Program-made: the position numbers and the translations under genes
The notes under the pieces: generated by a model
Database searches by the model: none
Told to the model about the DNA's origin: nothing
Seen by the model: only the letters and a program-made list of their open reading frames with translations
IMG/VR virus record: IMGVR_UViG_3300037439_000038
Span: 3,944-67,943 of that record
DNA from: a virus
Reading direction: 5' to 3' (one strand)
Length of the DNA: 64,000 nucleotides
Shown: piece by piece, positions 5,401-61,622 of the stretch
Layout: each line of letters begins with the position of its first letter
Position numbering within the stretch: the stretch's first letter is position 1

Positions 5401-5556
5401 TTGCTCCAAAGCCACCCAACTAGACACATTTCCGTGCTCAGTAAGTGCCCCTGCTTTCATACCTAATTCAACCCAACGGGCGACATGTGCTTTTGGTTGC
5501 TTATGCCCATCTCCAGTTGAAAACGTTGAATGACTATGGAGCGAAACGTATCTCAT
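2428..5556 (-). CDS. dnaE: DNA polymerase III alpha subunit (DnaE-like, family C)
   Basis: PHP domain (HSHS, TEHGN, SDVHY), GPGRGSAAGSLVCYLL, FERFL, PDIDLDF, HAAG, LLKVDLL, YAFNIAHSVSY motifs. Confidence 0.97.
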   Translation of the reverse strand: MRYVSLHSHSTFSTGDGHKQPKAHVARWVELGMKAGALTEHGNVSSWVALEQACEKAGVEPIFGIEIYFGKPGIQSKTHMILLAMTQLGLQNINRIVTKSWQQFYYSPTVYWEDLVKWNEGIIALSGCADSALSCTLLGGKYFGEKSLQPSDGAYERAVRGVRRFQKIFGDRYYLEVQRFPGLERTCVLNPLLAQISRDTGVPLVATSDVHYPLPEQNAIQRILHAADRGKDVQTVDASWEYDILLTYPKSDAEIFKDLKGTGLSEDDAKQAILATEEIARRCTGVRLPKSSPPKFGVESPENLLREWITIGWNHRVKHNKNIHANVKAYKERIKHEYETICAREGFADYFLIVADLVVWAKSQGIAVGPGRGSAAGSLVCYLLRITEIDSMQFPMLFERFLDPTRTDPPDIDLDFEDERRDEVFDYAARKYGSDRVANIANFQRYLGKSAIDDIARVYHIPSWKVDRVKSKLLEREEGHPRFAYSVLDTVNTFPEVAKAFKETPEFRYAIELESDLQNFSIHAAGMVIAGGDAKSLDEICATYERELSTTGRVAQSIPYDKRDAAYLGLLKVDLLSLVAMGEIAQICRDAGISLVDDLYQVPLDDEPTLQAFRDGEIMGIFQFEGITTRRILKAVQPTTFMHLADVNALSRPGANDKGYISNKNSGQLPEFAHDIIRHYTTEWPNTYGVLTYEEQILYVLRDLGGFEPAELNRMRKIIHDKLGSTQFNKYLERFIKGAGTHGLSENTARKIWDGMVSASGYAFNIAHSVSYAHIGYWQQWLKIHYPAAFYRAKFTKCKDNDKRAKFIQEADRMGIAVLPPDIMHSGHDWTLAKAGGVPTIVAGLEAIEGIGPKTAQAIIDWRGEIYTRDLEWDDLVEVKGIGKKTIQKIVDFVESDDPFGVQNTRKTLEKVRRSLPFGCPTPTHYSIDIVPDGQIVCHTGVLKKKKYYDAVEQLCKRENIDEYSDALKRLKDNHLIKYVALYVEDEYGETIRIGVNRWKYPSYTNDIENLSKGDVVVAQGKTSDWGGLGLQADEMFIIKEK

Positions 5557-6167
5557 AATTTTATATATCCTTTTGATAGATATTCAGGGATTCCCTTAGC
5601 CCTTTCTGATTCCATCCATCCTAAAGCTATATTACAAGATCGGCAAACTAATCCACGAATACATTTTCCACAGCTAACACTCTTTTTATCACCCTTTTTA
5701 TATGGGCAACATTTGTGATCGTGGTCTAAATATAGAATTTTATCATCGGATCTACAAGCTATATTGGCGCATTTGAAGTCTTGGCTTATCAATATGTTTA
5801 TGTATTGAACTCTGGTTATATTAAAATCTGAAAGTTTTCGTATGCTTCCACTTTTTCTAAAAATAATATGTTCATATTCCTTTAGTATAAGTGAACACTT
5901 AGGGCATCTAAAAACATTACCTGTGTGTAAATCTGAGCCAGGAATTGAATAAACAAATTCGTTTTTACATTCATAACATTTAACTAATGGAAGAGGGGTT
6001 CCATGAATCATATTCATTCTTCGATGCTTTGGACAATATTTTTGATATGGTTGTGGTAATTTATCGCACCAGTCTATAGCACAGCCAACGTTATTATCGT
6101 CTAATTCTAAATCTTCCAAAAGCTCAGTATAAGTTAAGCTTTCAAGCAATTCTTCTGCTGTTGTCAT
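5553..6167 (-). CDS. endonuclease VII-like (His-Me finger) nuclease with N-terminal zinc fingers
   Basis: YLDHDHKCC...CGKCIRGLVCRSCNIALG matches recombination endonuclease VII / HNH family; extra CxxC pairs. Confidence 0.85.
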   Translation of the reverse strand: MTTAEELLESLTYTELLEDLELDDNNVGCAIDWCDKLPQPYQKYCPKHRRMNMIHGTPLPLVKCYECKNEFVYSIPGSDLHTGNVFRCPKCSLILKEYEHIIFRKSGSIRKLSDFNITRVQYINILISQDFKCANIACRSDDKILYLDHDHKCCPYKKGDKKSVSCGKCIRGLVCRSCNIALGWMESERAKGIPEYLSKGYIKL

Positions 6168-14395: not shown

Positions 14396-14466
14396 CGTGC
14401 CTCACAAGGGAATCGAACCCTTCCGCTGCCAGGTGCTAAAGCTGGCATTAGGACCAGTCGTAAGGC
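14396..14466 (-). ncRNA. tRNA-like element A (D-armless, with anticodon-like arm)
   Basis: GCCTTAC/GTGAGGC 7-bp acceptor, TGCCAG/CTGGCA arm, AAGGG-TTCGATT-CCCTT T-arm, trailer ACG. Confidence 0.7.
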
Positions 14467-14609
14467 TTGGTGCTCGACCGCGATACAAAGGGACTTCCCG
14501 ACCATTACCCTTGCCCGTTCGGCCTGCTGATCTCCCTTTTCAGGATTCGGGACATCTGTGCTCGCCTCTAAACTTTATACTGAATAGCTATATGTAGCAT
14601 AGCAATTCG

Positions 14610-14683
14610 CTGCCCTGCTAGGATTCGAACCTAGAACCTACGGGACCAAAACCCGTCGCAGCTACCAATTGTGCTACAGGGCA
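14610..14683 (-). tRNA. tRNA-Gln (anticodon UUG), CCA not encoded
   Basis: cloverleaf: TGCCCTG/CAGGGCA acceptor, D-loop AATTGGT, ACGGG-TT TTG GT-CCCGT anticodon arm, CTAGG-TTCGAAT-CCTAG T-arm, discriminator G. Confidence 0.92.
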
Positions 14684-17447: not shown

Positions 17448-17491
17448 GCGTGGGTGCCAGGGACTCGAACCCTGGTGTCTGCCAGTCACCC
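17448..17491 (-). ncRNA. mini-tRNA element C
   Basis: GGGTG/CACCC stem, linker ACTGGCAGACA (D-loop-like TGGCAGAC), CCAGGG-TTCGAGT-CCCTGG, trailer ACGC. Confidence 0.8.
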
Positions 17492-18713: not shown

Positions 18714-18812
18714 CGTGCCTGTCGGGGAATCGAACCACCGACAACTCAATATTCGCATATACGAAAGCTCTTGTCTAGAGCCATGTTTCATTGAGTTGTA
18801 ACCGTTACAGGC
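18714..18812 (-). ncRNA. tRNA-like element D with a large inserted domain
   Basis: GCCTGT/ACAGGC acceptor, AACGGTTA linker, 9-bp CAACTCAAT/ATTGAGTTG helix carrying two hairpins, T-loop TTCGATT, trailer ACG. Confidence 0.75.
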
Positions 18813-19113: not shown

Positions 19114-19159
19114 GCGTGCCCGGTAGAGGAATCGAACCTCTACCAAGAACCATTCGGGC
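19114..19159 (-). ncRNA. mini-tRNA element E
   Basis: GCCCG/CGGGC, linker AATGGTTCTTG, GTAGAGG-TTCGATT-CCTCTAC, trailer ACGC. Confidence 0.82.
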
Positions 19160-19582: not shown

Positions 19583-19628
19583 ACGCTCCCGCCGTTGGAA
19601 TCGAACCAACGTGAAAACCATTGCGGGA
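19583..19628 (-). ncRNA. mini-tRNA element F
   Basis: TCCCGC/GCGGGA, linker AATGGTTTTCA, CGTTGG-TTCGATT-CCAACG, trailer GCGT. Confidence 0.85.
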
Positions 19629-20227: not shown

Positions 20228-20271
20228 CGTTCCCCGGTAAGGAATCGAACCTTACGAAAACCATTCGGGGA
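20228..20271 (-). ncRNA. mini-tRNA element G
   Basis: TCCCCG/CGGGGA, linker AATGGTTTTC, GTAAGG-TTCGATT-CCTTAC, trailer ACG. Confidence 0.85.
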
Positions 20272-21126: not shown

Positions 21127-21172
21127 GCGTAGCCAGGGGAGGAATCGAACCTCCCTGAAAACCGTTCTGGCT
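21127..21172 (-). ncRNA. mini-tRNA element I
   Basis: AGCCAG/CTGGCT, linker AACGGTTTTCA, GGGAGG-TTCGATT-CCTCCC, trailer ACGC. Confidence 0.85.
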
Positions 21173-21424: not shown

Positions 21425-21468
21425 TGGTGCGCCTAGTGGAATCGAACCACTACGAAAACCGTTGGCGC
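21425..21468 (-). ncRNA. mini-tRNA element J (encoded ACCA end)
   Basis: GCGCC/GGCGC, linker AACGGTTTTCG, TAGTGG-TTCGATT-CCACTA, trailer ACCA. Confidence 0.85.
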
Positions 21469-21474
21469 TCTTGC

Positions 21475-21744
21475 CTAATTCAAAATGGCTAGGTCGAACT
21501 TGTGGGAGTAAACATTGCGACTGCAGTTGTCGCACATGAATTCCTGTTTGTCATCACCTGTGCAATCGTCTGGGCAAGCGATAACCTTGTGACCGTCTGG
21601 AAGTTCGGCAGCGCTTGCCTCTACGCCTGCTTCCCATTCGGCACGATACTCAGGACCATAAAAATCGAGTCCTGATGTATCCCCATTGGCAATTGCGCAA
21701 GCGCAATCATCGCAGCAATGTAGTTCGCCAATGACAGTTGCCAT
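21475..21744 (-). CDS. Cys-rich acidic hypothetical protein (first early gene)
   Basis: CCDDCAC..IANGD and CDNC motifs; start behind GAGAGGATGAGGAAAA. Confidence 0.7.
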   Translation of the reverse strand: MATVIGELHCCDDCACAIANGDTSGLDFYGPEYRAEWEAGVEASAAELPDGHKVIACPDDCTGDDKQEFMCDNCSRNVYSHKFDLAILN

Positions 21745-21850
21745 TTTTCCTCATCCTCTCATTTTTGGGGAAAACCCCAGGTTGTGACCAGGGCATTAAG
21801 AGTACATAATGCCTGGTAGAAAGCCCATTAATGGGCCTGTAGTCCATTCT

Positions 21851-21904
21851 GAGACACCTTATAAAAAAGTGACTATTATAGGCCCTAAGAAAAACTGAAG
21901 TCTC
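21851..21904. promoter_or_regulatory. candidate bidirectional SigA-type promoter
   Basis: minus-strand TATAAT (21880-21875) with GAGACT 18 nt upstream; plus-strand GAGACA-17 nt-TATTAT (21851-21879); GAGAC/GTCTC inverted symmetry. Confidence 0.55.
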
Positions 21905-22690
21905 TGAGCATTCTAATGCGTGCCGTTATGGCGATTTATTCTGTTGAACCACTGGCCTGCATAGATCCTATGCAAACTAGTGGCGCAACGGAAAACCGTT
22001 ACGCCGAGGATGGATGGAATTAGGTTGCAGTGCAATCGATTTGGCGCGGCCAACTTGACGAATTGTCTTGTCTACCAACGTCTTACAAACCTTGCTTACT
22101 CTGCTAACCTCGCGACATAGATCGTCGCGTGCTGCTCACGGTGGTTGAATACTATCCCGATCAAACCAGGTCACTAGCTGTCGCTATATGCCGGGCACCT
22201 ATTTGGTGACTCCCGTTGTCTCTCGGTTATCGGCAGATGGAATGCGGGTAGCTCTTACGCTTAAACACGTTGCAGCAGAACACTATTCAGAATATCTATC
22301 GCACGAAAACCGTTGCGAGACAATAACTCTCGTATCGGTAGACTTGCACTTGATATTCGGTTTTAGATGGATGCCACCCACCATAGGGAATCGCTTTGAC
22401 TACAGACACTCATTCAATCCAGCGTGTTTAGCATGGTGGATTGATCCTGGTGTACCGTCATACCCTCCCGGTTTCCGGCCGGTCGGGAACGCTTGCTTCC
22501 GATATACGATTGCGATTGCTCATACCGACCGCTCACATCATTGGAACGATAGAACAATCTCGCTTTGATCAAACGTCGGCGCGCTACCGTCCAACTAAAA
22601 CGATTCTAGGTTTGCGACCATTGTCGAATCCTGGCACTCACGCGCGTACGTTTGAACTACGGAAGTAGTTCGCTTGCGATTCCCTATTTA
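21886..22690. ncRNA. candidate large structured non-coding RNA (~800 nt)
   Basis: no credible ORF; nested long-range helices (perfect 12 bp 22383-22394/22676-22687; 22070-22076/22337-22343; 22030-22035/22344-22349; 22569-22576/22648-22655) and many hairpins. Confidence 0.65.
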
Positions 22691-23002
22691 GTTCTCAAAT
22701 AAACACACTTCAACCTCTATACTACCAAAACCCCACCAAACCGCAGGTGAATGAGATAATCTGTTATTAGAATGAGGTCTAATAGGACCTATAATCCCAG
22801 GTCAGAGCATGTGACGGAAATCACACTATTCATTTCACACTGTTGGTCCAACTGTTGATTCTACTGTAAGACCAACGGGACTCAGTTAATCCTAGCTAAC
22901 TAAATAGGTACGAATCATCTTGTGCCACAAGGCATTTGAAATTTGAAAACCCTTGCACAACAACAACTTTCAAACTTGACACCTGTCAAGTTCAACTTTC
23001 GC

Positions 23003-23027
23003 AAAATGGTACATCAGTACCACTTTT
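23003..23027. terminator. possible bidirectional terminator at the end of the late operon
   Basis: TGGTAC-ATCA-GTACCA hairpin flanked by short T tracts on both strands; weak. Confidence 0.35.
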
Positions 23028-23535
23028 ACAACTTTTCAGCATCGGCAATCTGACGCTCCCGCCAAGCTCGATAGCGTTCGCTCATGTCCGGTCTGGAATT
23101 GTTCTCTTGAGAACGATTAGATGAATCCCCGGAAACAAAATCCTCAACAGGGACCGCAACAGGTACAGTTTGCTCAATTGGAAGGTTTCTCTTCTGCCAC
23201 CTAGTAGCAACCAGTGCAACGGCTTTGGCGCGATCCATTCCTGTTTGACGAACCAATGAAGAAACTGCTAACTGTTGCAGCACTTCACCTTTGAAGTCGA
23301 TTCTGGTATCCTCCCAAGGTTCTCCAGTAAGTAGTTCTAGGAATGCTCTGTATTTACATTCGTTAACACAAAGGGCTGCAACGGTTCCCTCCAGTACCCC
23401 AATGTATGTAGCAGTATCAGAATCTACTTCTAGTGGCATGGGAGCGGCCTTTAATGGTACAAATTCTACGGATTCAGTCATCCTTTTGATCCTTTCCATA
23501 CTGAATGAATTGCTTTGGTGGAGTTTGTATTTCAC
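23026..23535 (-). CDS. hypothetical protein
   Basis: long ORF after lysin B; start may be internal (MTESVEF). Confidence 0.65.
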   Translation of the reverse strand: MKYKLHQSNSFSMERIKRMTESVEFVPLKAAPMPLEVDSDTATYIGVLEGTVAALCVNECKYRAFLELLTGEPWEDTRIDFKGEVLQQLAVSSLVRQTGMDRAKAVALVATRWQKRNLPIEQTVPVAVPVEDFVSGDSSNRSQENNSRPDMSERYRAWRERQIADAEKL

Positions 23536-23621: not shown

Positions 23622-24560
23622 TTAGATCCCTGGGACCGCATAACCCAAACCTTTCGCTAGATACTTCGCACTTCTGATGGAATGAAAGATTGGCGAAAAA
23701 CCGGGAATGATGTGCCAATCGTGATAATGACCATGAGCGCCACTAGATGCAAACCTAGCCGCTGCGCTAATTGTGTTGACTGCTTTAGTACTTGCGCTGA
23801 TAAAGAAAGGAATGTTGCCTATGACCCACATTGGACTAGTCGGATTAGCACCAGCAAGTTTCATCAGATCAGTCTTGCCGACGTTAATTATCAAGTCCTG
23901 CACAGCTTTCCATGGATTATTGAACTGCAAATCTGTCAATGTAGCATAGAAATCAAACAAGTAACTATTAGGATTTGCGTTAGCGTACATATCGTCATAG
24001 AAAGCGTAATCACGCCACAAAACCCCAGGCGGGGTTTCCACTAAAGTATCTTTGGCAATTCCATGCCAGGGCAACATGTTTCCGTTGGGAAATGTCCTAT
24101 CTTGGAATCTGCATGGGTTACCGAAAGTATAAACAGCCTTTAATTGATGCAATCGATGCTTAAGACGTCCACTAGCAAATTCTCGCACTAGTTCTGAAAT
24201 CAGCTGTGCCCCTTGGGAATACCCGCCCAAGACTATATTGTCGTCCATTGGCAATGTCTCAATTTGAGCAACGGCAAAAGTTACCCCATCATCAACAGAT
24301 ACTTCATAACTCGGTGCTCTCAAAGCACTAAAGGGATTGAAACCCGATGGACCCATTGCTGGAATTGGACCAAATGAGCCAGAGTATCCCGGTGGACAAA
24401 GCATAAATGGTTCGAAAATATTCCTAGGTAAGCGATCTGGAAATCTATCATCAAATAACCAAAGACCAAGTCCAACTGGCTTTTTCGGAGCAGGATTTTC
24501 ATTACGGAACATTTCTACTTCCCATGTTCCTGGTGCCCAAAGATAAAAAATTTTCTTCAT
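23622..24560 (-). CDS. lysB: lysin B (cutinase-like mycolyl-arabinogalactan esterase)
   Basis: GGYSQGA nucleophile motif, YTFGNPCR, DDMYA and C-terminal HGHY; located in the lysis cassette. Confidence 0.9.
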   Translation of the reverse strand: MKKIFYLWAPGTWEVEMFRNENPAPKKPVGLGLWLFDDRFPDRLPRNIFEPFMLCPPGYSGSFGPIPAMGPSGFNPFSALRAPSYEVSVDDGVTFAVAQIETLPMDDNIVLGGYSQGAQLISELVREFASGRLKHRLHQLKAVYTFGNPCRFQDRTFPNGNMLPWHGIAKDTLVETPPGVLWRDYAFYDDMYANANPNSYLFDFYATLTDLQFNNPWKAVQDLIINVGKTDLMKLAGANPTSPMWVIGNIPFFISASTKAVNTISAAARFASSGAHGHYHDWHIIPGFSPIFHSIRSAKYLAKGLGYAVPGI

Positions 24561-25744: not shown

Positions 25745-26178
25745 TATGGCACAACATCATTCAAATCAGGACCGTTGCGAGTTTTCGGAACCAAAGCAGA
25801 AGTTGCTGTGTTAAACCTGGCAAATAGTGATCCGAAGATTGTTGCTCCTGCAGTTACCAATATAGGAATTTGAGGATTGTCTGTAAATACAGCAACCGCA
25901 GCAGAACTACCCTGAAGTAAAGTTACCAAACCGTAGATTATTCTACGAACTTTGTCTTGAGTAGCACCAATTGAAAGCAATGGATCAACAATTGCAAACA
26001 AATATGGAATCCACAGGTTTGCATCGTTTTCTGTAACAATGCTCATACCAATCAAGGTAGTAACAATGATTGGAACAGCATCGTGAAAGAGTGCTCGCCA
26101 GTCCTCCAGAGTCTTTGGCTTAGTTACACCAGAAACAGGTTGTGTAGTAGCAACTTTAGGCTGTGTTTGCGTTGTCAC
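25744..26178 (-). CDS. putative holin
   Basis: about 4 TM segments directly after lysin A; GTG start behind AAGAGGG. Confidence 0.65.
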   Translation of the reverse strand: MTTQTQPKVATTQPVSGVTKPKTLEDWRALFHDAVPIIVTTLIGMSIVTENDANLWIPYLFAIVDPLLSIGATQDKVRRIIYGLVTLLQGSSAAVAVFTDNPQIPILVTAGATIFGSLFARFNTATSALVPKTRNGPDLNDVVP

Positions 26179-27712
26179 CGTTTCCCTCTTCTTCCGATTC
26201 TTTAAGTGCTTTGAGAATGGATTGGGCATATTTCCTCGCTCCCTCGTTGTCACCTGCTGGTCCCAAACCGTCTGCTACCCTTTGGATTCGGGCAAGATTT
26301 TTAGAATCTCCCAGCATTGCCCCAATAATTACTTTATTATCCCAAGTATTTCCATCAGTGTTCAAAAGCATTCCAATGGTATCATCGACACCCTCATCAG
26401 AATCTCTGAAAACTGCTCTACTAGGCCACTTTCCACCAATGCTTGCTACATCAGGATATGCCATAACTTTTTGCCACATCTGGTGAATTTTCTCATCTGT
26501 AGTTGGCACTTTAATAGCCTCCTTCATTCCAAACAAAACTAGCATTTCGTTGATATTGTAGGGTGACCAGTTAACGTCGACATTCATTCCCTCCCAAGGC
26601 TTTTGATCTAATGCCGTAGAAGTAAATTGATGAGCTATAGCGTCAATCTTGACTTGCGAGTCGCGTATTCCACTAATATCTCCGGGCGTCCGATTATATT
26701 GGGGGACAACAAGATTGACATTTCCTCGCGTGGGCCAAAGCGCAGGATCGGCATTTGAGTTGTAATACCCGATGACCCTTGCAAAATTGCTATACCACTT
26801 ACGAATACGGTTGACTTCATCGTTGATTTCCCAACTGTTATTTCCGGTGACAAGTCCTGTCTTTGGATCGCCACCCTCAATATCAACCATCGTCACTGTT
26901 CGTGGATGATTGAAAAGTCCTGCCTCTTCAAGCATTTCACGGTGAAGATCGCAGTTAGCCTGCATTGGCCGGAAAAAGTAGTAAGGAATAACTATGTCAA
27001 GTTTGCCCTTGTCAAGCAATTCCTTTGCAGCTCTTGCGTTTTCAATTCCAAGTGCATCCCGTTTATCTCCGCTGTTTGTACGGAAACTGAATATACGATG
27101 TGAATATGATTCATCGACCACTTTAACTTGATATTGTGAAACGTCGCACCAGAACAAACCACCTGCATCAGGTACAACGATTTTTCTTGGAATAACTGGA
27201 CCACCGCCACCACGACGGAGGGTAGAGAATCCATCAGGTCGAATAAACTTAGAAATAAACTCTCCCACAAGAGGATTGTTATGAGTATTACCATTCATCT
27301 GAAAATGCATTGAGTCTCTGGGACTTGTCCAATCCTGGCCCCAAAAAACGATTTTCAGACCCTTATAGGTATAGAATGCTAAAAGCTCTCTAATACCAGC
27401 CTCTTCGGCGGGAGTAAATCCTGCCAATGAAATACGGAAAGTATGATCTGACCAGTTATAATCAAATGCTGTACCCGACAAGTGATTTGAATTCCAAACT
27501 GAATTTTGCGGTGTCCACCCGCCTTCGTCTGTGCCGCCTCTCGCGTTATATATGCTTTCAACGTAAGCATGTATATCCGCAGCGAAAGCCTTTAAAACTA
27601 TTGATGGCCAACCTATTTGAAGTGGTATAACCACATCGGTTCCGGGAATGGGGGATCTATCTAAAAGGTCTGCCCCAACCTGAAACCAACCATTTTCAGT
27701 CTGTAATGCCAT
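26156..27712 (-). CDS. lysA: lysin A (M15-like Zn peptidase + GH25-like muramidase)
   Basis: TENGW N-terminus, SNHLSGTAFD and DSMHFQ peptidase motifs; WCDVSQYQ, DIEGG, HQFTS glycoside hydrolase motifs. Confidence 0.92.
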   Translation of the reverse strand: MALQTENGWFQVGADLLDRSPIPGTDVVIPLQIGWPSIVLKAFAADIHAYVESIYNARGGTDEGGWTPQNSVWNSNHLSGTAFDYNWSDHTFRISLAGFTPAEEAGIRELLAFYTYKGLKIVFWGQDWTSPRDSMHFQMNGNTHNNPLVGEFISKFIRPDGFSTLRRGGGGPVIPRKIVVPDAGGLFWCDVSQYQVKVVDESYSHRIFSFRTNSGDKRDALGIENARAAKELLDKGKLDIVIPYYFFRPMQANCDLHREMLEEAGLFNHPRTVTMVDIEGGDPKTGLVTGNNSWEINDEVNRIRKWYSNFARVIGYYNSNADPALWPTRGNVNLVVPQYNRTPGDISGIRDSQVKIDAIAHQFTSTALDQKPWEGMNVDVNWSPYNINEMLVLFGMKEAIKVPTTDEKIHQMWQKVMAYPDVASIGGKWPSRAVFRDSDEGVDDTIGMLLNTDGNTWDNKVIIGAMLGDSKNLARIQRVADGLGPAGDNEGARKYAQSILKALKESEEEGNGDNANTA

Positions 27713-31681: not shown

Positions 31682-34530
31682 TAGTCGCTACCTCCCTGGA
31701 TATCAATAAGGAATCCAGTTGGGTTAGTTTCCAAAATCGTCATACTTGTCGGAGGTGTCGGAGGCGTCAAATCACCTGTTCCACTTGAAGGAATTTCACC
31801 CTCAACAGGATCTTGTCTAAACCTAACGTAGGCACCAGCTTTCGCGCCTGCTCCCCCGCCGTTGAGAATTCCAGTCAGCCAGTGCCCCCCGGCTCCACCG
31901 CCACCCGGAGAAAGACCGGCTCCACCAGCAGATTTTTGATCGCCACCGGCAACGTATGGAAATCCTTTGTACTCAAAAACTTTCGGACCACGTCCAATAG
32001 TGCCACTGCCACCAAAGGCAGGACCAGAGCCAGCAGCACCAGCGGTTGCTGTAACTCCGTATTCATCAAGCCAAATTCTCATTGCTGTTATATCGAATTC
32101 CACAATTTGATCGCCAACGAAGTGATCCCCGCGAACAACGGTAGTTGCGTTGAAAAGTCCTGGGCTACCACCCATTCCACCAAACGGAGGAATACCACCA
32201 GCGCCCGGTCCACCTCGACCAACAACAACCAAGTCAACGTAAACTGCCCACTTAGGAACAATAACTGTAGTTGATTCAGTAAGTGGTCCAACCATTACCG
32301 GATCATGATAATTAGTAGAGTTGCCAGTATCAATACCAGTTTCTATATACATCACTTTGGTAGTAGTAGCTACTGCTCCACTAGCGATAGAAGAAGCTGG
32401 AAAGGTTGGTGTAGTTTCATTACGTTGTGCTGCAAGAGCTTTCACTAATGCGTGCGGATGATCAGGAATAGGATCTTCTGTATCAAATCCCTTAACAAAG
32501 ATCGATCCACCAACGGGAACTAGTTGATATTCATAATCTTCACCAATAACCTGTGCTGGAGGAACAGGGAATTGGTAGAAAACCCAATCCCTACTAGCAG
32601 AAGTAGCACCTGGTGGGAATTCACTGATTATATTGGTACTATGGTGAACTAGTACTCTAGCAGCAGTTTCAGCATTAATTTTTCTAACATTGCAATAAAC
32701 AGCTGTAGTTCCAGATCCAAGATATCCCAAAAATGAAAGAACACCTAATGGACGAGATTTTCCAATTCGATGTGTAACACAAAGACTTTCAGCTTGGGTT
32801 ACCTCAAGATAAGTATTTGCAGAGGTGTACGGAATGTTTGAATCGCTAGTTGCCATAAGACCATTGGCAACAGGTTCAGCATTTCTAATTCCTAAAAGAC
32901 TATAAGCAAGTTGACCAAGAAATGAGTTAGATCCAAGAATATTAAATACATTAAATGCATCTGCAGGGCTAGCGCCAGTTCCGCCCGGCGCATTTACAGC
33001 TCCACCGACTATTGCATCTAGAATCCCCATAAGAGATTCCCCGATATTTCCACCGCCAAGGACGCCAGAGATAATAGTGAACGGAATGCTAGTGAGGGCA
33101 CCAATTAATTGTGGAATTGTTGCAAGCAGCGAACTTGAACCAGTGAGAGCATTGAAAATGGTATTAATGATATTCTGGTCTGAGCCAAATAGTGTTTCAA
33201 GGAATCCCGGCAATCCGTTGACAACTTCAGGATCAATCAAAGATTCCTGACTAACCCAAGAATCATCGAAATCAAAGGTGCCAGTTGTTGCTTGAGGTGT
33301 AACTAGAACTCTCTTCTGAATTCCAGTTACATCATCTGGTGTATCATAAGTTGCAGCTAGTTCAAATCCCGGCCATGCGAGCATCGAAGCTGTTGGGGCA
33401 TAAGCAGTTAGAAGCTCTGGTGGTTGTTTTACGTTTCCCTTCCAAGGAATAACCCAAAGTTCAATTGGTGATCCTGTACCAGTGTATCCACTATAAGATA
33501 AAAAGATTGAAAGATCAACTGGCTTACCAGGAACCACAAGCATTTGAGAGTTGTGGTCTTTTCCGGTGACTAGGGAATGATATCTACCATCAGCGACAAT
33601 CCTTGCTGATCCGGTGCCATCATCATCTTTGGAATTATAAGCAACAGTTAAGCCCTCTTGGTTTGTTGAAATAGAACCAAATGGAAAGTCTTCATTCTCA
33701 ACAAGATTGACGTCCTCCCCGGTAATAGCACTCGCAGGAACTTGAGTAGTACCAGGACGTAAAAACCCGAACAGATTTGCAGCATTAAGTGGGGAAAAAA
33801 CCGTAAGGAACGAACTTGCTGTATTGACAATAAATGTCAAAGCCTCAATAAAAGGAACGCCCAGAGTTGAAAGCAGAGAAAAAACCGGCTTTAGAGGTTC
33901 AAGTGCGAGTAAATCAAACAAATCTAGAACACTAGCTAAAAGATCGCCAAGGTCACCAAAGCTGATAAATCCCAACGCATCTAGCAGACCTGATAAGCTT
34001 TGAAAGAATTCTTCAAAACTGTCAGTGAAAAGGTATATAGCATCACGTAATTCAGTGAGACTTTCGATAAAGGCCGGTGACATGCCAAGATCTTCTGCCC
34101 AGGCAAGGATTGCGTCAAAGATTACATCGGTGAATTGATCAAGTGGAATAATGTAGTTATTGAACATATTCCACGCTGCTTCAAAGAGATTCAGCGGGAA
34201 CGGTGTATCAGGATTAATGCCTAAAAGAGCGCCAAGGCCCTGAATAATATACTTAAGATCACCAAGTTCAATTCCAGTTGGTTCAAGTCCTGCGAACAGA
34301 ACAAACAGATCACCAGCAAAACCTGTGATCTGTTCAATAATATTCTGATTCGCGCTGTCTACACCCTTTTGCAACTTGGATAGAAATGCAGTGTGAGTAT
34401 CAGCAACCTGGTTAAGAAAGCTAATGTTCTTTACAAAGTCTTTGTTAGCAAAACTCTTTTGTCCAACGTTCAAGTCCCGCAACAACGCAGCTTCGCGAGA
34501 TACCGGGGAGGCGTTTAGGCTAGCTGTCAT
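31681..34530 (-). CDS. minor tail protein (large, central fibre/receptor-binding candidate)
   Basis: 949 aa, helical N-terminus, carbohydrate-binding-like central beta domain, Gly-rich C-terminus. Confidence 0.8.
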   Translation of the reverse strand: MTASLNASPVSREAALLRDLNVGQKSFANKDFVKNISFLNQVADTHTAFLSKLQKGVDSANQNIIEQITGFAGDLFVLFAGLEPTGIELGDLKYIIQGLGALLGINPDTPFPLNLFEAAWNMFNNYIIPLDQFTDVIFDAILAWAEDLGMSPAFIESLTELRDAIYLFTDSFEEFFQSLSGLLDALGFISFGDLGDLLASVLDLFDLLALEPLKPVFSLLSTLGVPFIEALTFIVNTASSFLTVFSPLNAANLFGFLRPGTTQVPASAITGEDVNLVENEDFPFGSISTNQEGLTVAYNSKDDDGTGSARIVADGRYHSLVTGKDHNSQMLVVPGKPVDLSIFLSYSGYTGTGSPIELWVIPWKGNVKQPPELLTAYAPTASMLAWPGFELAATYDTPDDVTGIQKRVLVTPQATTGTFDFDDSWVSQESLIDPEVVNGLPGFLETLFGSDQNIINTIFNALTGSSSLLATIPQLIGALTSIPFTIISGVLGGGNIGESLMGILDAIVGGAVNAPGGTGASPADAFNVFNILGSNSFLGQLAYSLLGIRNAEPVANGLMATSDSNIPYTSANTYLEVTQAESLCVTHRIGKSRPLGVLSFLGYLGSGTTAVYCNVRKINAETAARVLVHHSTNIISEFPPGATSASRDWVFYQFPVPPAQVIGEDYEYQLVPVGGSIFVKGFDTEDPIPDHPHALVKALAAQRNETTPTFPASSIASGAVATTTKVMYIETGIDTGNSTNYHDPVMVGPLTESTTVIVPKWAVYVDLVVVGRGGPGAGGIPPFGGMGGSPGLFNATTVVRGDHFVGDQIVEFDITAMRIWLDEYGVTATAGAAGSGPAFGGSGTIGRGPKVFEYKGFPYVAGGDQKSAGGAGLSPGGGGAGGHWLTGILNGGGAGAKAGAYVRFRQDPVEGEIPSSGTGDLTPPTPPTSMTILETNPTGFLIDIQGGSD

Positions 34531-35783
34531 GATGGCACGTATTCAATTGGATCATAATTAAATGCACCCTCTGCCATAAGATTTAGCTGCACTTTGTTAG
34601 TTTTTTCATCCCAGACCATAGCCATAATTTTATGCTTTTGATTGATATCTGGACCCCAAGCTGTTGGACCCTGAACGCGCACAAGATCTCCCACATCAAA
34701 TGAACCAAACGGAGCATTGAAATGATATGGTTCAATAACAATTGATTCAAACTGACGAGGAAACTGCCTGCGACTTAGTTTTCTTCGCGCCCATGCTGCC
34801 GCACGTTCGTTTGAATCAACATGCAAATCAACCTCATCTAACACGCGGCGGTATCTATCAGGATCAGCATTTTCTAGAGTATGTGAATAGACTTTCCCAG
34901 GAAAATAACCGTTAATAGTGATATCAGAAATCCACTCAACTTCTGATTCTTGTTTGTGAGTTGCTGCAATTACATTTTCTCCCATTCGAAAAACTAAATC
35001 AGTTTGATCAACTCCCCCTTGGGGATAGGCAAGTCGAATCTTCTTGGCAATTGCGGTCTTTGCCTCATTAAAAGTAGATTCTTCCCAGTAATCAAAAGGA
35101 ATATCACGAGCCAACCGATTGATGTAGTCTCCGCAATCATTTCTATCAACTGCCCTAATGAAGATAGCAAAGAAATCTTGCACGAATTCTTCGTTGTTGA
35201 ATGAAAATCCTGGCAGCATTTGAGTTCCAGAATCAGTGGGATATACGGTAACTCCCAAGTCTCCGTTGACAAACGGAATACTTCCAGATGCAGAACCATG
35301 CTGTATGTGATCCCAAATACGATCAACAATTTCAAACGGATCAACAGCAATAGGATTCCAATTCTGAAGCCACGGAATACCTTTCGGATAATCTGCAAAT
35401 CCTTGAGCACGAACAGTCATGATCCCAGATTCAGGATCTATTTCTGATGGCTGGAAAATTCCACTAGCCCAAATCTTTTGCTCACCATCTAAGCCCATCT
35501 TCACTGCATGAATCCAATGACCCCAAGGCTTGAATTGAATTGGACCAGAGCCATCAGGCATTTGAACACTTGGCTCTTTAGGATGAATTTTAAACTCAAT
35601 CTGGCAGGGACCAGCCAACATTCGAGTGATGTTAGCCTCTTGAACAATTAAGTCTCTGGCTAAGATTTCTCCATGAATATCTTCCACCAAAAAATGAAAA
35701 CGGTCATAATAAGCCGAAGTTGGTGGAGTAGGCCGAGTTTCAGAATCAAACTCAGCCGGAAAGGAAAAATCAAATGCTGTCAT
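34527..35783 (-). CDS. minor tail protein (baseplate hub/Tal-like)
   Basis: position after distal tail protein; FGSFDVGDLVRV-type C-terminus. Confidence 0.78.
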   Translation of the reverse strand: MTAFDFSFPAEFDSETRPTPPTSAYYDRFHFLVEDIHGEILARDLIVQEANITRMLAGPCQIEFKIHPKEPSVQMPDGSGPIQFKPWGHWIHAVKMGLDGEQKIWASGIFQPSEIDPESGIMTVRAQGFADYPKGIPWLQNWNPIAVDPFEIVDRIWDHIQHGSASGSIPFVNGDLGVTVYPTDSGTQMLPGFSFNNEEFVQDFFAIFIRAVDRNDCGDYINRLARDIPFDYWEESTFNEAKTAIAKKIRLAYPQGGVDQTDLVFRMGENVIAATHKQESEVEWISDITINGYFPGKVYSHTLENADPDRYRRVLDEVDLHVDSNERAAAWARRKLSRRQFPRQFESIVIEPYHFNAPFGSFDVGDLVRVQGPTAWGPDINQKHKIMAMVWDEKTNKVQLNLMAEGAFNYDPIEYVPS

Positions 35784-36215
35784 TTATGTCCAGGCCCAAC
35801 CGCTCCAAGTGCCTTCCCAGCGTCTACGCTGAGCACCTTTAGTGTTTCCATCCATTGACCAAAAACGTTGAAAGATAACAAGATTGCCAGACAATTGACA
35901 AGTTACAATCATAATAAACACTGGACCGCTATTACCTGGCACATTGTAGGTATTTGGATCTGGGGCATCTCCGTTTAAAAAAGAACCACCAATCCAGAAA
36001 AATCCTGGCGTAACAAGACTATTGAAATCAACTGGATCAGTAATCTGTGGAACCGCTAAATCAACAGTTGAGATAGAAGAAAGTAAAGCAGTTAAAGCAG
36101 CATCTTGCTCTACATCCTTAACCTCTTGTTCTTCCAGTTCATTTGAAGCAGCCGTCCATTCAGCAGAGGTTAGCTGATCACCCGTTGATTTCGGCTTAGG
36201 TACATAATCAGGCAT
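35784..36215 (-). CDS. minor tail-associated protein
   Basis: K..GDQLTSAEW N-terminus and pyocin-knob-like C-terminal domain (FNSLVTPGFFW...IFQRFW). Confidence 0.55.
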   Translation of the reverse strand: MPDYVPKPKSTGDQLTSAEWTAASNELEEQEVKDVEQDAALTALLSSISTVDLAVPQITDPVDFNSLVTPGFFWIGGSFLNGDAPDPNTYNVPGNSGPVFIMIVTCQLSGNLVIFQRFWSMDGNTKGAQRRRWEGTWSGWAWT

Positions 36216-36223
36216 TTTTACTC

Positions 36224-37096
36224 CTAATCCAAAAGCTGGTATGCGTCATGCCAATACACGCGCATCTTAGAATTTGAAGTGATAGCTCCACTTGAACTCC
36301 AATAGATTTCAATAGGTGCATGATCATAGATTTTAACCTTCTCTAGATAAGTATCTGTTTTTGCAGCTAGAGAAAGCCCGTCGCTATTAATGATTCGTCT
36401 ACCTAACCAAGGATAGCTAGTTAACTCAACCAATTCATCTGCAGCCAATGTCCAATCTAATGCGATTTGACTTGTTCCAAAATGGATTACGGGGTTTGTC
36501 ATTGGTCCCCACATAATCACCCGAATCCAGCTTGGCGCATTTCCTCGTGTAAGAAAAAAGTTGGCAGGAGTATCTGGAAGATCAAGGTTTGCATAGTATT
36601 CCGTTTCAGAATATGCAAAAGTATCAGATCGTCTAAACTCAGCAGTGATATTGTAATAAGCACTATCAACTAGTCTATGAAGTGTATATCCGAACTTTCC
36701 AGGGCGACCAAAAAACATCTTTGTAACGCCGTCTCCACCACGGAAATACAAAGGTTTAATCTGGTTCCATTCAGAGAAGATATCTTCGGCTCGCCACTCC
36801 CGCTGGATATCGCCGAGTTGAGGATCATTATCAAAATTCAATATTTTACTTGAACCCATAAGTCCTGCAACGTTTTCCAGAATCTTATTCTTTGTCAAGT
36901 GAATAGTCATCTGGATTGGTGTGGGCTTAAGAGTATCCTGACCGAACCTAAGTTCGTTACTTGATTGTGCTTGATAGTCTTGAACATTCACATCATAGTT
37001 ACCAATATCCAAAGATTCCACCTTGAACATGGTGTGACGACCCATGATTAGATCACCAATTTGAAACTGCCCTATTTCAAGATTTCTACTGGGCAT
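36224..37096 (-). CDS. distal tail protein (Dit-like)
   Basis: immediately follows tape measure; start MPSRN overlaps the TMP end. Confidence 0.75.
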   Translation of the reverse strand: MPSRNLEIGQFQIGDLIMGRHTMFKVESLDIGNYDVNVQDYQAQSSNELRFGQDTLKPTPIQMTIHLTKNKILENVAGLMGSSKILNFDNDPQLGDIQREWRAEDIFSEWNQIKPLYFRGGDGVTKMFFGRPGKFGYTLHRLVDSAYYNITAEFRRSDTFAYSETEYYANLDLPDTPANFFLTRGNAPSWIRVIMWGPMTNPVIHFGTSQIALDWTLAADELVELTSYPWLGRRIINSDGLSLAAKTDTYLEKVKIYDHAPIEIYWSSSGAITSNSKMRVYWHDAYQLLD

Positions 37097-40000
37097 ATCC
37101 GAATGCCCCCAATCCAGCAGACTTAATAGTAAACATTGCATCATCCATTGTATCTCGTGGATCTTGGCCTGGCCCTTGATAAATCACGAAGCTATTAGCC
37201 ACGGCGGGTCTGTCGGGATAATCCTTTCCAAGTGCTCTTGGAAGTGTGTTGAAAACATTCTTCATTTGCGGATTTTCAGAAGTGTAAGCTTGAAGCTGTC
37301 CTGTCGTTTCATCAAGCAAAAACTTCATATCCTGAGCACCGGGGAATCCTAGCCAACTAGTAAGAAATCGACCAAGATACTTAGTGGCAATTCTGTATCC
37401 CTCTTGAGCTACATCTATTCCGGTATTTACTGCTGTAATCACTTGTGAGACAAGCTGTAACATTCCCCCAGCAGCAGAGGTAGCTCCAAAATCTGATCCA
37501 CCCGTGAATTGTCCTGCAAATGAAGCGATTCCACCAGCAGCTTGGAAAGCTTTTGCAAAGAAATCTAATCCAGTTTGGAAGTTATCAATTAGATTCATGA
37601 TATCTTGAGTGTTAGAAACACCGCGAACTAAAGTACCTGTTGTATCCTTCAGTGCCCCAATATATTTGATTCCAGCATCTATCGTTGCGAAAATATCACT
37701 AGCGATACCAGAGACACCGTTAGCAAGTGTAGTAGCTTGATCAATAGCATTTGGACCTTCTTTAAGTCCAAACTGACCCATCACCTGAGAACGACTCTGC
37801 CCCAAAGCATCTACAAGAGGTTGATTACCTTGCTTTTCTGCATCGATAATTCGACTATCGATGTCTTGCAACCACTTAACAGCCCCCTCTTGATCTTGAG
37901 GCATTTGTCCCAAAAGATCGCGTTGGTTCTCCAATCCTGGCGGGAGTCCAGGCAAACCGTTTTGACCCCAAGGATTAATTTGCTGAATTTGACTGTTAGG
38001 CAATGAAACTGGCACCGTTCCTGGTGGTTGACCGGCTCGGTTGCCGTGCTGGTTTGCCTGCCCCCACTGCTGCCACACATCGCCCGTTAGCCCGCCTGGT
38101 TGAGGCGTAGCAGGGAGATTTCCTAGGATGCTAGCCACTGACCCACCAGGGCCGGAGAAATTAGCCTGAGCGCCTTTATCAAAATGCACGTCTACATGAT
38201 TGAAGTGCCCACCAGCCTCAAATCCAACGCCTTCCTGACCAGGATAGCGACCTTGGTTGCGCCAGATTGAATACTTAACTCCTAGTTGAGGTCCGAATTG
38301 TTGGAAGAAAGAATTGATCTCATCGCCAAGGCCCATTTGATCAGGACTAATCGGAATGTCAATAGATAGACCAGCGTCGTGAGTATTTGGTGCAGTACCC
38401 GTATCTCGACTACCTCCGATAGTTCCACGAATCTGTTCACCCCAGATTTGTTGAACAAAAGTTGCGGCTTGTCGGGAAAGTGCCCCAGAGGGAATAGAAC
38501 CTGTATCTTTAAGAATTGACGGAGAAGAGACGGCATTACTTATGGCAGAAGTAAATTGAGCAGAGAAAGAATTAAGATACTGTTGTGCAGCTTCTTCTGC
38601 TCTCTGACGATGACCCACATTTGATGGATGAAGTGGTCCACCAATTGAAACTTGAGTTCCTAATTGCGTTGGGTCAGTAAAGGATTCAGGTGTTAAACCA
38701 CGTTCTCTAGCTAAATCGAAATAAGCATCAATGTTGTCTTGAGCATTTGTGATAGAACCAGGTCTATTGCCCCAAGTGCCAGGAGTGAATTGGAATACTC
38801 CCCTAACATCACCTGATCCATCCTGATTACCGCCATTTGCAAGAGGATTGAGACCACTTTCGCCAACAGCTTGAATAACAAACTGATTAGCTTGCTCTCT
38901 TGTATATCCAAGAGACATAGCTTTTTGAATAATATAATTAGCAGTTTGTTGCTTACCAGGATTTGCATCCAAAGCACTTGGCGCAGCACCTCTTCCGGTT
39001 GGAGAACCAAAAGTAGTATTTTGAAGCAAAGTTGGATTCCAACTACCAAGAGCAGAACCACCAGGCTTAAAATTAGGATCTTGCTCATATGATTTCGGGA
39101 AAAGACGACCGCCGCTGAAATCATTTGCAAGAGTTGCAACACTGATACCAATATCGAAGAGTTGCTTACCAAAATCAAAAATTGATTTACCAAAGTCTGA
39201 AAGTTCTTGAAGATCTTTGACCATAGTTTCCACTTGATCAAACAGGGGAGTTGAGGCACCACCTGCCATAGCAGAAACAGCACCTTTAGCTGTCCCTGTT
39301 TCAGAAGCTATACCTTCTGCAAAAGCTTTCGTAAAAGCCTTACCACGGTACAGAGTCCAGCCCTTACCAGATAAAGGACCGTATTTAGCTGGCGACCCTG
39401 GCATTCCCCCTGCAGCTATTTCAGCTAATCTAAGTATTGCATTACGAACTTCTTCGCTACTTGAATTAATACCCTCTGCAAAGGCTTCCGACAAAGACTT
39501 TCCAGAAGCTTCCGCGTTTGAGATATAAGTCTGCAGAAGCGATTGCACCTGGGGGTCAAGTGAACTAGCATCTTTAGCTATAAAATCTTTAATTTGTTGA
39601 TCTGTGGCATTTTTCAATGAGTCTGGAAGCGTGAATTGTGTACTGCTACTTCCACTTCCGGGAGATGGTAAGCCTAGATCCCTTGTGGGATTGAAATCTC
39701 TATACCAAGGAACTGTTGAATTAGGAGCAGTAGAAGTACCTGAGACAGGAGGTAATCCAAGTATAGGCTTTGGGGCACCTGGTTGATTGAAAAACGACCC
39801 TTGGCTAGTAATGCTACTACCAGCAGAAGCACCAGGTAAACCCGAAACATCAAGTGTTGTAGGAATTTTCAAAGTAGAACCAGGACCACCAGTAATTTCA
39901 TTAATGATATCTTCTTTGGTGGTCATCAAATCAAGAACTGAATTTAGCTTAGCAGGATCATCTGCAAAAGTTTGTTCAATGATTGTCTTGGGATCAGCAC

Positions 40001-60652: not shown

Positions 60653-61240
60653 TCTCCAATATCCGTTCTTTCCTCATCTGTTGGAGAACGAACAGAATTC
60701 ACCCTGAGCTTTCTCGACCAAAAACCTTCATGCAGTTGTTAATTGCTTCTTCTAGCTGGTTATATGCTTTGTCTTGTTCTTCTGTTAAAGCCATCTAAAC
60801 CCCAGCCCAATCTAACCAGTCTATTTCATCTTGACGCTGCTGTTCTAGCTCTTTCATTACTTCCAGATCCTTGTATATTGCTTCCAAGAGAATCTGAGTC
60901 ATCGTCTTTCTAGGAGAAGGGCACATCAAATCCACCTCGCTATTACTTCATTGTTTTCATCTTCTGCTTCATGCCAGCCTTTGTGATTGACATCTAAAGT
61001 ACAAAGATATTGCATCTCATGGTTTGACTCAGCTAAGCATAGAATATCAGCCAAAGCTATTGCAGCACTTTGTGCTTCAGGATCATCAATCATCTTCTAG
61101 ATCCTTCTTTAGCCACTCCATGTACTTGTCTGCTGTAGCCAAAACGCTTGCGTCCCTATCTCTTATAGCAGAAATTCCACCCCATGATGTCGCTGCAGCA
61201 TGTAGTGCAATAGCACGAAGAATCAGTTCATCCTCATCCA

Positions 61241-61432
61241 TTATTCTGGTCCTTTCAAGTTATTCAAACCCATTGATATAGCAATGAATGCAGATCCACC
61301 CAAAAGCCTTGTCATAGCACTGACTCCGATTGCTCTATCCAAATCGCGTACAAAGAAATCCCAAACTCCCCACATACCCAACATCAATGTGAGAAACCCA
61401 AAGATGAATATCCAACTAATTATAAACTTCAT
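61241..61432 (-). CDS. small membrane protein
   Basis: two TM segments. Confidence 0.6.
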   Translation of the reverse strand: MKFIISWIFIFGFLTLMLGMWGVWDFFVRDLDRAIGVSAMTRLLGGSAFIAISMGLNNLKGPE

Positions 61433-61622
61433 CCATCAATCTCCTAAATCCTTCTTTTGCTCTATCCCAATCGAAAACCTCACTTGGCCTTGGTGTTTCA
61501 GCACGGAGTTTGTTTATAACTGCAGAATTCATTCGCGCATTTCTTAGCTGATCTGAAGTATGCGATCCTGTTTTACCTATGGCAAAATCAGCGCCCATAT
61601 TTTCAGCCTCCCATAATCTCAT
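61416..61622 (-). CDS. hypothetical protein
   Basis: 68-aa ORF. Confidence 0.45.
   Translation of the reverse strand: MRLWEAENMGADFAIGKTGSHTSDQLRNARMNSAVINKLRAETPRPSEVFDWDRAKEGFRRLMDEVYN

Follow-up and report, generated by a model that had tools for sequence, protein, structure and literature searches.

The early promoter Pleft of mycobacteriophages L5, D29 and StarStuff gives an abundant and stable non-coding RNA (PMC5712189). Here, we analysed a 64,000-nucleotide (nt) stretch of viral DNA, referred to as the window, which comprises bases 3944-67943 of the 72.4-kb IMG/VR record IMGVR_UViG_3300037439_000038, rated complete. Its gene-free gap (21745-23025) contains an undescribed conserved element that is predicted to be a structured RNA and lies inside a composite promoter/operator/terminator region. 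The cluster A RNA made from Pleft resembles it in several respects. It is a ~500-nt non-coding stretch that separates an early promoter from the first early genes in a mycobacteriophage genome, a conserved open reading frame (ORF) is absent, its sequence diverges fast, and it is presumed to act as RNA. There is, however, no sequence similarity between the two, and the cluster A RNA is found at the right genome end of temperate-type phages. The element described here is located in the middle of the genome, after the lysis cassette, and unlike the cluster A RNA it has a covarying junction module and a 13-mer complementary to a ribosome-binding site (anti-RBS 13-mer). The expression of the cluster A RNA was shown experimentally, whereas the element described here is known from its sequence alone.

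The second system that can be compared was found in cluster K mycobacteriophages. Their start-associated sequences (SAS) and extended SAS (ESAS) include a conserved motif of ~13 nt, which is placed right before many start codons, often after a structured inverted repeat, and whose function is unknown (PMC3203893). The authors left the partner of the motif as 'either RNA or protein', and in three cluster K genomes one copy each was found on the complementary strand (PMC3203893). A single complementary copy of the motif is also seen here, in the gap. The motifs themselves differ (GGGATAGGAGCCC in cluster K and GAGGATGGAA here). Furthermore, unlike in cluster K, the upstream element is here a tRNA-like T-arm minihelix, and the complementary copy sits in the conserved, putatively structured RNA.

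The layout of the element is also similar to that of bacterial RNAs that mask the Shine-Dalgarno sequence. The common features are an unpaired C/U-rich seed, flanking helices, a hairpin directly after the seed, and complementarity centred on the ribosome-binding site. The likeness is in layout only, as the RNA predicted here is longer and phage-encoded, and unlike the bacterial RNAs it would target a whole co-transcribed regulon with one motif. GOLLD, ROOL and other large ornate RNAs of the Rfam collection are alike in that they are encoded in phage DNA, are non-coding and contain many helices. The element differs from them by the absence of a covariance-model match, by a conserved core of ~270 nt, and by its neighbourhood, since the tRNA genes typical of GOLLD and ROOL were not seen beside it.

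The gap and its conserved core

A non-coding gap of 0.9-1.55 kb, located after the lysin B module and before the early genes, was present in every relative for which DNA was fetched. It was found at the same place in six isolated phages and in at least nine metagenomic contigs (loci are designated here by L-numbers, e.g. L006):

Window, 21745-23025 (1281 nt), minus strand: the whole non-coding control region, defined by the ORF map and by syntenic gaps in relatives
Fowlmouth: gap after gp36
Cuke: gap after gp33
MrMiyagi: gap at 32385-33402, unannotated
Oaker (cluster H): gap at 35708-37263
Papyrus and Send513 (cluster R): gap after gp41
Metagenomic contigs L006-L013 and L021-L029: gap with the same synteny

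In the window, the gap is the longest stretch uncovered by a minus-strand ORF of at least 60 amino acids. The first-pass annotation, made on the DNA letters and a list of ORFs, had noted a block without a credible gene at 21886-22690. This was borne out, and the block is in fact wider than noted. Three parts of the gap make up the conserved core:

22162-22243, minus strand: three-way junction with a GACA-loop hairpin and the invariant GUGACCUG (covariance model R1, covariation)
22007-22019, minus strand: invariant 13-mer UUCCAUCCAUCCU, the same in eight sequences
21982-22005, minus strand: covarying hairpin directly after the 13-mer, with U.G/G.U pairs that form only in gene sense in the window, L031, Papyrus and Send513

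The junction module (22243-22162) could be aligned with Fowlmouth, MrMiyagi and Cuke. In these four sequences, 93% of the alignment cells were paired, compared with 27-36% when the partners were slid, and compensatory changes were observed in 8 of the 23 pairs. After inclusion of Papyrus and Send513, 96% of the cells were paired vs 23-41% for the slid partners; this six-sequence alignment was fitted to the covariance model, which favours structure. Model R1, built from the four sequences, gave 72 bits in the window and 91-107 bits in the five isolates, with 91-94 bits in Papyrus and Send513, which were both outside the training set. In a blastn comparison, Fowlmouth and ten cluster R phages shared the module at 86% identity, for the most part in DNA that carries no annotation, and its flanks could not be aligned. 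The model found no copy in L006, L007, L009, L011, L012, L021-L029, L031 or Oaker; L006 seems to carry a diverged copy, visible by eye only. The invariant GUGACCUG is the reverse complement of the CAGGTCA at 22167.

The 13-mer is placed ~140 nt downstream of the junction module and is identical in the window, L006, L031, Fowlmouth, MrMiyagi, Cuke, Papyrus and Send513. The stem of the hairpin that follows it (22005-21982) is present in all eight sequences; it comes in five sequence versions, each of them paired. A U-tract follows the hairpin in Fowlmouth, MrMiyagi and Cuke, which gives it the form of a canonical U-tailed terminator. The consensus fold of the 270-300-nt core comprises 66 pairs, 18 of them with compensatory changes, and it leaves most of the 13-mer single-stranded, with a long helix on one side and the terminal hairpin on the other. 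The fit of the window's own sequence to this long helix is poor.

The well-supported core is thus ~270 nt, and the whole putative transcript, of at most ~740 nt, is patchily conserved. The collection of homologues from related phages, proposed in the first-pass annotation as a check of its ~800-nt RNA, upheld conservation across lineages for the core only, and most of the 800 nt are lineage-specific. L006 alone is collinear with the window over much of the gap, with 59-70% identity in blocks. The protein-coding gene just upstream of the gap shows 31% protein identity between the window and L006, which indicates that the start of the gap is more constrained than its coding neighbour. A blastn search with the gap of the window against 50,697 phage records gave no match. 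The homology with Fowlmouth, Cuke and cluster R surfaced only via synteny of flanking proteins, relaxed local blastn and the covariance model. In scans of IMG/VR with the flanking proteins, Fowlmouth and Cuke were the sole matches, and scans with two DNA patterns returned chance matches, Cuke excepted. Genome ends or a cos site in the gap were ruled out, because the complete linear records of Fowlmouth, Cuke and Papyrus have the homologous gap in the middle of the genome.

Practically every long ORF of the window is on the minus strand. The presence of both lysin A (26156-27712) and lysin B (23622-24560) places the virus among phages of mycolic-acid bacteria. The closest isolates are Mycobacterium phages Fowlmouth, MrMiyagi and Cuke, with a lysin B identity of 61-62% and an identity of 78-82% for the 89-amino-acid early protein. 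In the order of transcription, structural genes are followed by the lysis cassette, a gene for 169 amino acids (23026-23535), the gap, and many small early genes, the first of which codes for the 89-amino-acid protein (21475-21744, minus strand). As a part of the explanation proposed below, the virus would be a siphovirus with a lytic life cycle and a relative of Mycobacterium phages Fowlmouth, Cuke and Papyrus, in which the gap divides the late operon (structural and lysis genes) from the early one. The G+C content is 43.8% in the whole record, 48-49% in the Fowlmouth and Cuke loci, and 57.5% in the Oaker locus; that of M. smegmatis is about 67%. A divergent control region may also be present at 60653-61240 (588 nt), the second-longest stretch without a minus-strand ORF, after which two ORFs on the plus strand follow (61024-61281 and 61284-61547).

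The 13-mer, early start motifs and the probable RNA strand

The 13-mer UUCCAUCCAUCCU is complementary to GAGGAUGGAA, a ribosome-binding motif common to the early genes. Nine copies of AGGATGGAA are present on the gene strand, all of them shortly before the start codon of an early gene, and the opposite strand has none. The same pattern was found in Fowlmouth, Cuke, L006 and cluster R (Papyrus and Send513). Within the gap, the 13-mer is the best duplex partner of the motif (9 bp, -16.7 kcal/mol). The fraction of shuffled sequences that did equally well was 0.01 for the window, <0.005 for Fowlmouth and 0.02 for L006. All phages with the 13-mer use early ribosome-binding sites of the AGGATGG type, and phages without it use other motifs. 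This data suggests that the 13-mer may serve as an anti-RBS seed.

The start-associated (G)AGGATGGAA is placed 0-5 nt ahead of nine early start codons on the minus strand (21396, 21106, 20599, 20205, 19563, 19083, 18687, 16441 and 15468). The shared start motif differs in other relatives: L007 and L021 use CAAGATTGGAGA, and Oaker uses AACGGACAAAATC. The 13-mer occurs once more, as an exact copy, at 5610-5622 on the plus strand, ~54 nt before the start of a gene for 1042 amino acids (2428-5556), and the mRNA there reads AGGAUGGAUGGAA. A role of this copy as a target was considered and dropped, since the second copy of Fowlmouth lies in another gene region and Cuke lacks one; conservation as a target is thus improbable.

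Eight tRNA-like minihelices are located between the early genes on the minus strand, with T-loops at 14409-14419, 17461-17471, 18726-18736, 19128-19138, 19597-19607, 20241-20251, 21141-21151 and 21438-21448. Each combines an acceptor-like stem and a T-arm, the latter with the exact motif GGUUCGANUCC, and has a linker, often AAYGGUUUUC. Each is placed ~30-45 nt ahead of the shared ribosome-binding motif. Neither ARAGORN nor Rfam called them tRNAs. In 28 copies from seven phages, the T stem was 94% paired with heavy covariation, and the acceptor-like stem was well above slid controls. By analogy with the 't-elements' of plant mitochondria, the minihelices may be processing or stabilising signals. 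No description of such minihelices in phages was found in the literature.

Upstream of the core and downstream of its hairpin, the following further parts of the gap were recognised:

22719-22727, minus strand: extended -10 TGGTAGTAT in a block conserved with L006 (TGGTATTAT), from the alignment
22575-22700, minus strand: 5' module conserved with L006, which holds the 5' arm (22687-22676) of a 12-bp helix and the hairpin 22671-22654
22383-22394, minus strand: 3' arm of the 12-bp long-range helix, kept in L006
22315-22333, minus strand: hairpin CGAGA-GTTATTG-TCTCG, its sequence conserved with L006
21872-21887, minus strand: candidate proximal early promoter TAGGGCCTATAAT with -10 TATAAT at 21877-21872, putative promoter function
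21745-21865, minus strand: hairpin-rich 5' untranslated region of the 89-amino-acid gene, with the palindrome GCCCATTAATGGGC at 21836-21823 and the Shine-Dalgarno sequence GAGGATGAGGA

The RNA would start near 22712, and the block around the extended -10 stays conserved with L006 into this putative transcript start. In hairpin 22671-22654, the L006 stem differs at four of the seven pairs and is still paired. The L006 version of the 12-bp helix has 11 bp, a 2-nt bulge and one exchange of C-G to A-U.

The RNA is probably made in gene sense, i.e. from the minus strand. This strand is favoured by the U.G and G.U pairs that form only in gene sense, both in the terminal hairpin (window, L031, Papyrus and Send513) and in the helices of the module, by the stem of the Fowlmouth group, which is canonical and followed by its U-tract in gene sense only, and by the gene-sense extended -10 shared by the window and L006. 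The first-pass annotation had favoured rightward transcription, which was not supported, and had singled out hairpin 21982-22005 as one that favours minus.

The best explanation is, in our assessment, a control region between late and early genes with a conserved structured gene-sense RNA that ends in the anti-RBS 13-mer and a hairpin. The element itself would most likely be an early leader or a regulatory RNA of gene sense with an anti-RBS motif. In the direction of the genes, late terminators would be followed by a Crp-type operator and a CAGGTCA promoter-like module, both acting as DNA, then by the extended -10 promoter at ~22727-22719 and an untranslated RNA of ~700 nt. Its core (22243-21982) is predicted to fold as a three-way junction and to end in the single-stranded 13-mer UUCCAUCCAUCCU, followed by a stable hairpin. 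The early promoter would give rise to this RNA first, be it a leader or a stable RNA released by termination. A leader role is indicated by Fowlmouth, in which the first early ORF is so close to the hairpin (27 nt) that no other promoter fits in between; there, the gap must act as a leader and the hairpin must be read through. The 13-mer would pair with the ribosome-binding sites of at least nine downstream early genes and would tune or shut off early translation, and the hairpin would act as a terminator, attenuator or processing site that sets how much transcription continues into the early genes. Taken as a whole, with the placement of the virus included, we hold this explanation to have about an even chance of being correct. 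A more specific version remains tentative and is rather improbable, namely that the 13-mer pairs in trans with the start-associated sequence of the whole early regulon, so that one RNA switches the translation of a dozen early genes, alongside the tRNA-like minihelices.

Several observations weigh against this explanation. The folding energy of the region is ordinary for this genome, and no U-tract follows the hairpin in the window, L006 and L031. Even L006 could not be aligned with the window over about half of the putative 700-nt RNA (~22574-22395 and ~22300-22245). In two-sequence consensus folds of the 5' module, both strands score about equally, and three mismatches in the window's copy of the junction module would become wobble pairs on the plus strand. 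The invariant GUGACCUG matches, as reverse complement, the CAGGTCA that recurs in both orientations in the gaps of relatives, and part of the conservation of the module may be at the DNA level. Co-variation of seed and target was looked for in independent lineages: L007 and L021 have an interrupted complement only (shuffle fraction 0.135-0.145), and no complement of their start motif was found in the gaps of L009 and Oaker. As lineages with other motifs showed no significant anti-RBS match, it may be shared ancestry alone that makes the 13-mer and AGGATGG sites occur together. It should be added that we infer transcription, its strand, the ends of the RNA and its regulatory role from sequence comparison.

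An alternative is a purely cis-acting leader or attenuator. In such a leader, the folded RNA and its hairpin would control read-through into the early genes, e.g. via a bound host or phage factor, and the 13-mer would serve as a site for a protein or the ribosome and not as an antisense seed. This would fit the short distance of 27 nt between the hairpin with its U-tract and the first early ORF of Fowlmouth. The 13-mer abuts the hairpin in 8 of 8 sequences, and in L006 local pairing is possible between it and an AGGATGG downstream, on the other side of the hairpin. However, no anti-terminator alternative pairing is conserved across lineages, the hairpin of the window, L006 and L031 is the one without a U-tract, and a plausible second promoter downstream in the window (21887-21872) would bypass the attenuator. 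We consider this reading unlikely.

Putative DNA-level sites of the gap

The right part of the gap (22783-23025), which is beyond the interval of the first-pass annotation, is better explained by sites that act as DNA:

22919-23021, minus strand: terminator-like hairpins of the late operon (terminator scan; blocks conserved with L006 and the Fowlmouth group)
23021-23002, minus strand: GGTAC-TGAT-GTACC followed by ATTTTG, a terminator-like hairpin
22995-22970, minus strand: 11-bp palindrome of the late terminator cluster
22931-22919, minus strand: CTTGTG-G-CACAAG of the late terminator cluster
22810-22825, no strand: Crp-type palindrome TGTGA-N6-TCACA, perfect and present once in the window
22783-22804, plus strand, facing right: promoter-like module TAGGACCTATAAT-CC-CAGGTCA (TATAAT-CC-CAGGTCA), inverted relative to the L006 segment

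The palindrome at 22810-22825 is a perfect 16-bp match to the operator consensus of the Crp/Fnr family, and TGTGA-N6-TCACA is the consensus of mycobacterial Crp (PMC4218801). All metagenomic relatives, as well as Fowlmouth, MrMiyagi and Cuke, have a TGTGA-N6-TCAC box in the gap; the exact box is absent from the gaps of Oaker, Papyrus and Send513. The spacing between the box and the candidate start site varies between lineages, and no geometry of activation or repression could be assigned. These matches, spread over very divergent relatives, suggest that host cAMP-Crp, or a phage protein of equal specificity, may control the early region.

The plus strand of the window has two copies of CAGGTCA, both in the gap. 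In the gaps of relatives, the heptamer is found in both orientations, with an array of seven copies in L011. There, 170 bp of the homologous gap (L011:4351-4524) are taken up by tandem units of 23 and 58 bp around GTGACCTGGCA; these look like iterons or an operator array. A family of tandem or direct repeats of the iteron type, as expected of a replication origin, was sought in the gap of the window and none was found. The left 13 nt of the promoter-like module at 22783-22804 are the inverted partner of 21875-21887. The 13-nt inverted repeat TAGGRCCTATAAT occurs at 21875-21887 and 22783-22795 and nowhere else, and brackets ~900 nt. Each copy contains TATAAT; the left one faces the early genes and the right one faces away. 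A mobile element bounded by these repeats was ruled out, as L006 is collinear within and beyond them.

The gap as a whole could be a DNA-level control region and nothing more, in which no RNA has a function of its own and the conserved pieces are promoters, terminators and sites bound by proteins (the Crp box and CAGGTCA operators or iterons), together perhaps with an origin of replication that forms single-strand hairpins. The perfect Crp box, unique in the window and with a similar box in the gaps of many relatives, would fit such a region. So would the confinement of the window's plus-strand CAGGTCA to the gap and its two orientations elsewhere, the iteron-like array of L011, the promoter-like segment inverted between the window and L006, and the ordinary folding energy. 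On the other hand, the junction module and the hairpins show compensatory changes that involve G.U pairs, as expected of an RNA and not of sites in duplex DNA. Moreover, the window has no iterons and no inflection of GC skew, its DNA motifs cluster at 22783-22825, outside the conserved core, and cluster R retains the core without the exact Crp box. A DNA-only region is the main rival and stays credible for the sites of the right part, but it leaves the covariation with wobble pairs in the core unexplained. For the gap as a whole we regard it as doubtful and continue to prefer a control region that includes a gene-sense structured RNA.

Folding energy, coding potential and implications

The first-pass annotation had read 21886-22690 as a densely structured, ornate non-coding RNA of ~800 nt, comparable in scale to GOLLD and ROOL and made rightward on the plus strand. 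All helices and hairpins that it listed exist at their coordinates, and a perfect 12-bp inverted repeat is uncommon, being reached by 2 of 300 shuffles and in 2 of 79 other windows of the genome. A density of structure beyond chance was not confirmed, as the z-scores of minimum free energy (MFE) were within the spread of windows from the same genome. For the 805-nt region, the z-score was -2.9 on the plus and -4.0 on the minus strand with 20 shuffles, and -5.1 on each strand with 10 shuffles. Twelve other 805-nt windows of the genome gave a mean of -2.7, with a standard deviation of 1.8 and a minimum of -6.8. The central 300-nt windows of the region (-0.7 to -1.6) corresponded to the genome average, and the 300-nt window 21646-21945 had a z-score of -4.5. 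MFE z-scores were discarded as proof of structure, because coding windows of the same genome score alike.

Several long-range helices of the first-pass annotation are absent from L006. Among these, the nested GTGCAA/TTGCAC (22030/22344) and GTCTACC/GGTAGAC (22070/22337) are present in the window and have no counterpart in L006, the closest relative. A search of the whole window with 4227 Rfam models at gathering thresholds returned a tRNA-Gln only. When 21600-23200 was scanned with cmscan at E-values up to 10, as proposed earlier, two noise matches far below threshold appeared (mir-241 and ACA59), and neither GOLLD nor ROOL was matched. ARAGORN found one tRNA in the window (14609-14683) and none in the gap. 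Neither ARAGORN nor the Rfam models recognised a tRNA or tmRNA in the gap.

A large RNA made rightward would agree with the existence of the noted helices, with a plus-strand promoter-like GAGACA-17-TATTAT that ends at 21879, just ahead of 21886, and with the three plus-strand wobble pairs of the window's junction module mentioned above. However, a terminator-like hairpin on the plus strand (21921-21933) would halt the transcript after ~50 nt, and the wobble pairs of the conserved helices and the relatives' U-tailed terminator suit the other strand. Together with the lack of an Rfam match, the limitation of cross-lineage conservation to ~270 nt and the helices missing in L006, this makes the large plus-strand RNA very improbable. 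What stands of that proposal is a structured non-coding RNA inside the region, indicated by the compensatory changes in 22243-22162 and 22005-21982, while its ~800-nt scale gives way to the core of ~270 nt.

The longest candidate gene of the region, the ATG-initiated plus-strand ORF 22188-22568 (126 amino acids), was checked for a coding signal, a control already foreseen in the first-pass annotation, and none was found. Its product matches itself alone among 5.8 billion proteins, it has no Pfam or PHROG match, tblastn in relatives gave no match, and its codon score is 0.04 vs 0.15-0.33 for real neighbouring genes. Stop-free segments of the gap of at least 40 amino acids had no match among PHROGs, and no coding similarity was revealed when the gap was compared by tblastx with the syntenic Fowlmouth and Cuke regions. 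An unrecognised or decayed protein-coding gene in the gap, such as this ORF or small minus-strand ORFs, is hardly credible: ORFs are annotated at the same place in relatives (Fowlmouth gp37 and the N-terminus of gp38, Cuke gp34, Papyrus/Send513 gp42), but the shared nucleotide blocks lie in differing reading frames from phage to phage, the homologous MrMiyagi gap was left empty by its annotators, and the 126-amino-acid ORF is a non-coding orphan by the tests above.

In Fowlmouth, gp37 and the 5' part of gp38 (L002:4650-5241), and in Cuke, gp34 (L003:4612-4761), overlie the conserved non-coding element. These ORFs are unconserved as proteins; gp37, the start of gp38 and Cuke gp34 are probably not genes. 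The true start of Fowlmouth gp38 is probably an internal Met (MASKVY...). In Papyrus and Send513, gp42 denotes dubious reverse-strand ORFs in the homologous gap, upstream of the junction module. All these annotations, gp42 included, are likely artefacts. Several 'hypothetical proteins' annotated at the place of the element were thus revealed as doubtful genes.

Few phage non-coding RNAs are known, and almost none has a mechanism. The element described here is conserved in at least four mycobacteriophage lineages, i.e. this virus, the Fowlmouth group, Cuke and cluster R. Isolates that carry it exist and grow on M. smegmatis mc2 155, so the predictions are open to tests by recombineering, reporter fusions and RNA-seq. 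One testable scheme of early-region regulation now ties together three repeated features, namely the shared ribosome-binding motif, the tRNA-like minihelices and the single complementary copy of the motif. If the 13-mer does pair in trans with the start-associated sequences of the early regulon, the RNA would provide a partner for the mycobacteriophage 'start-associated sequence', a puzzle open since 2011.

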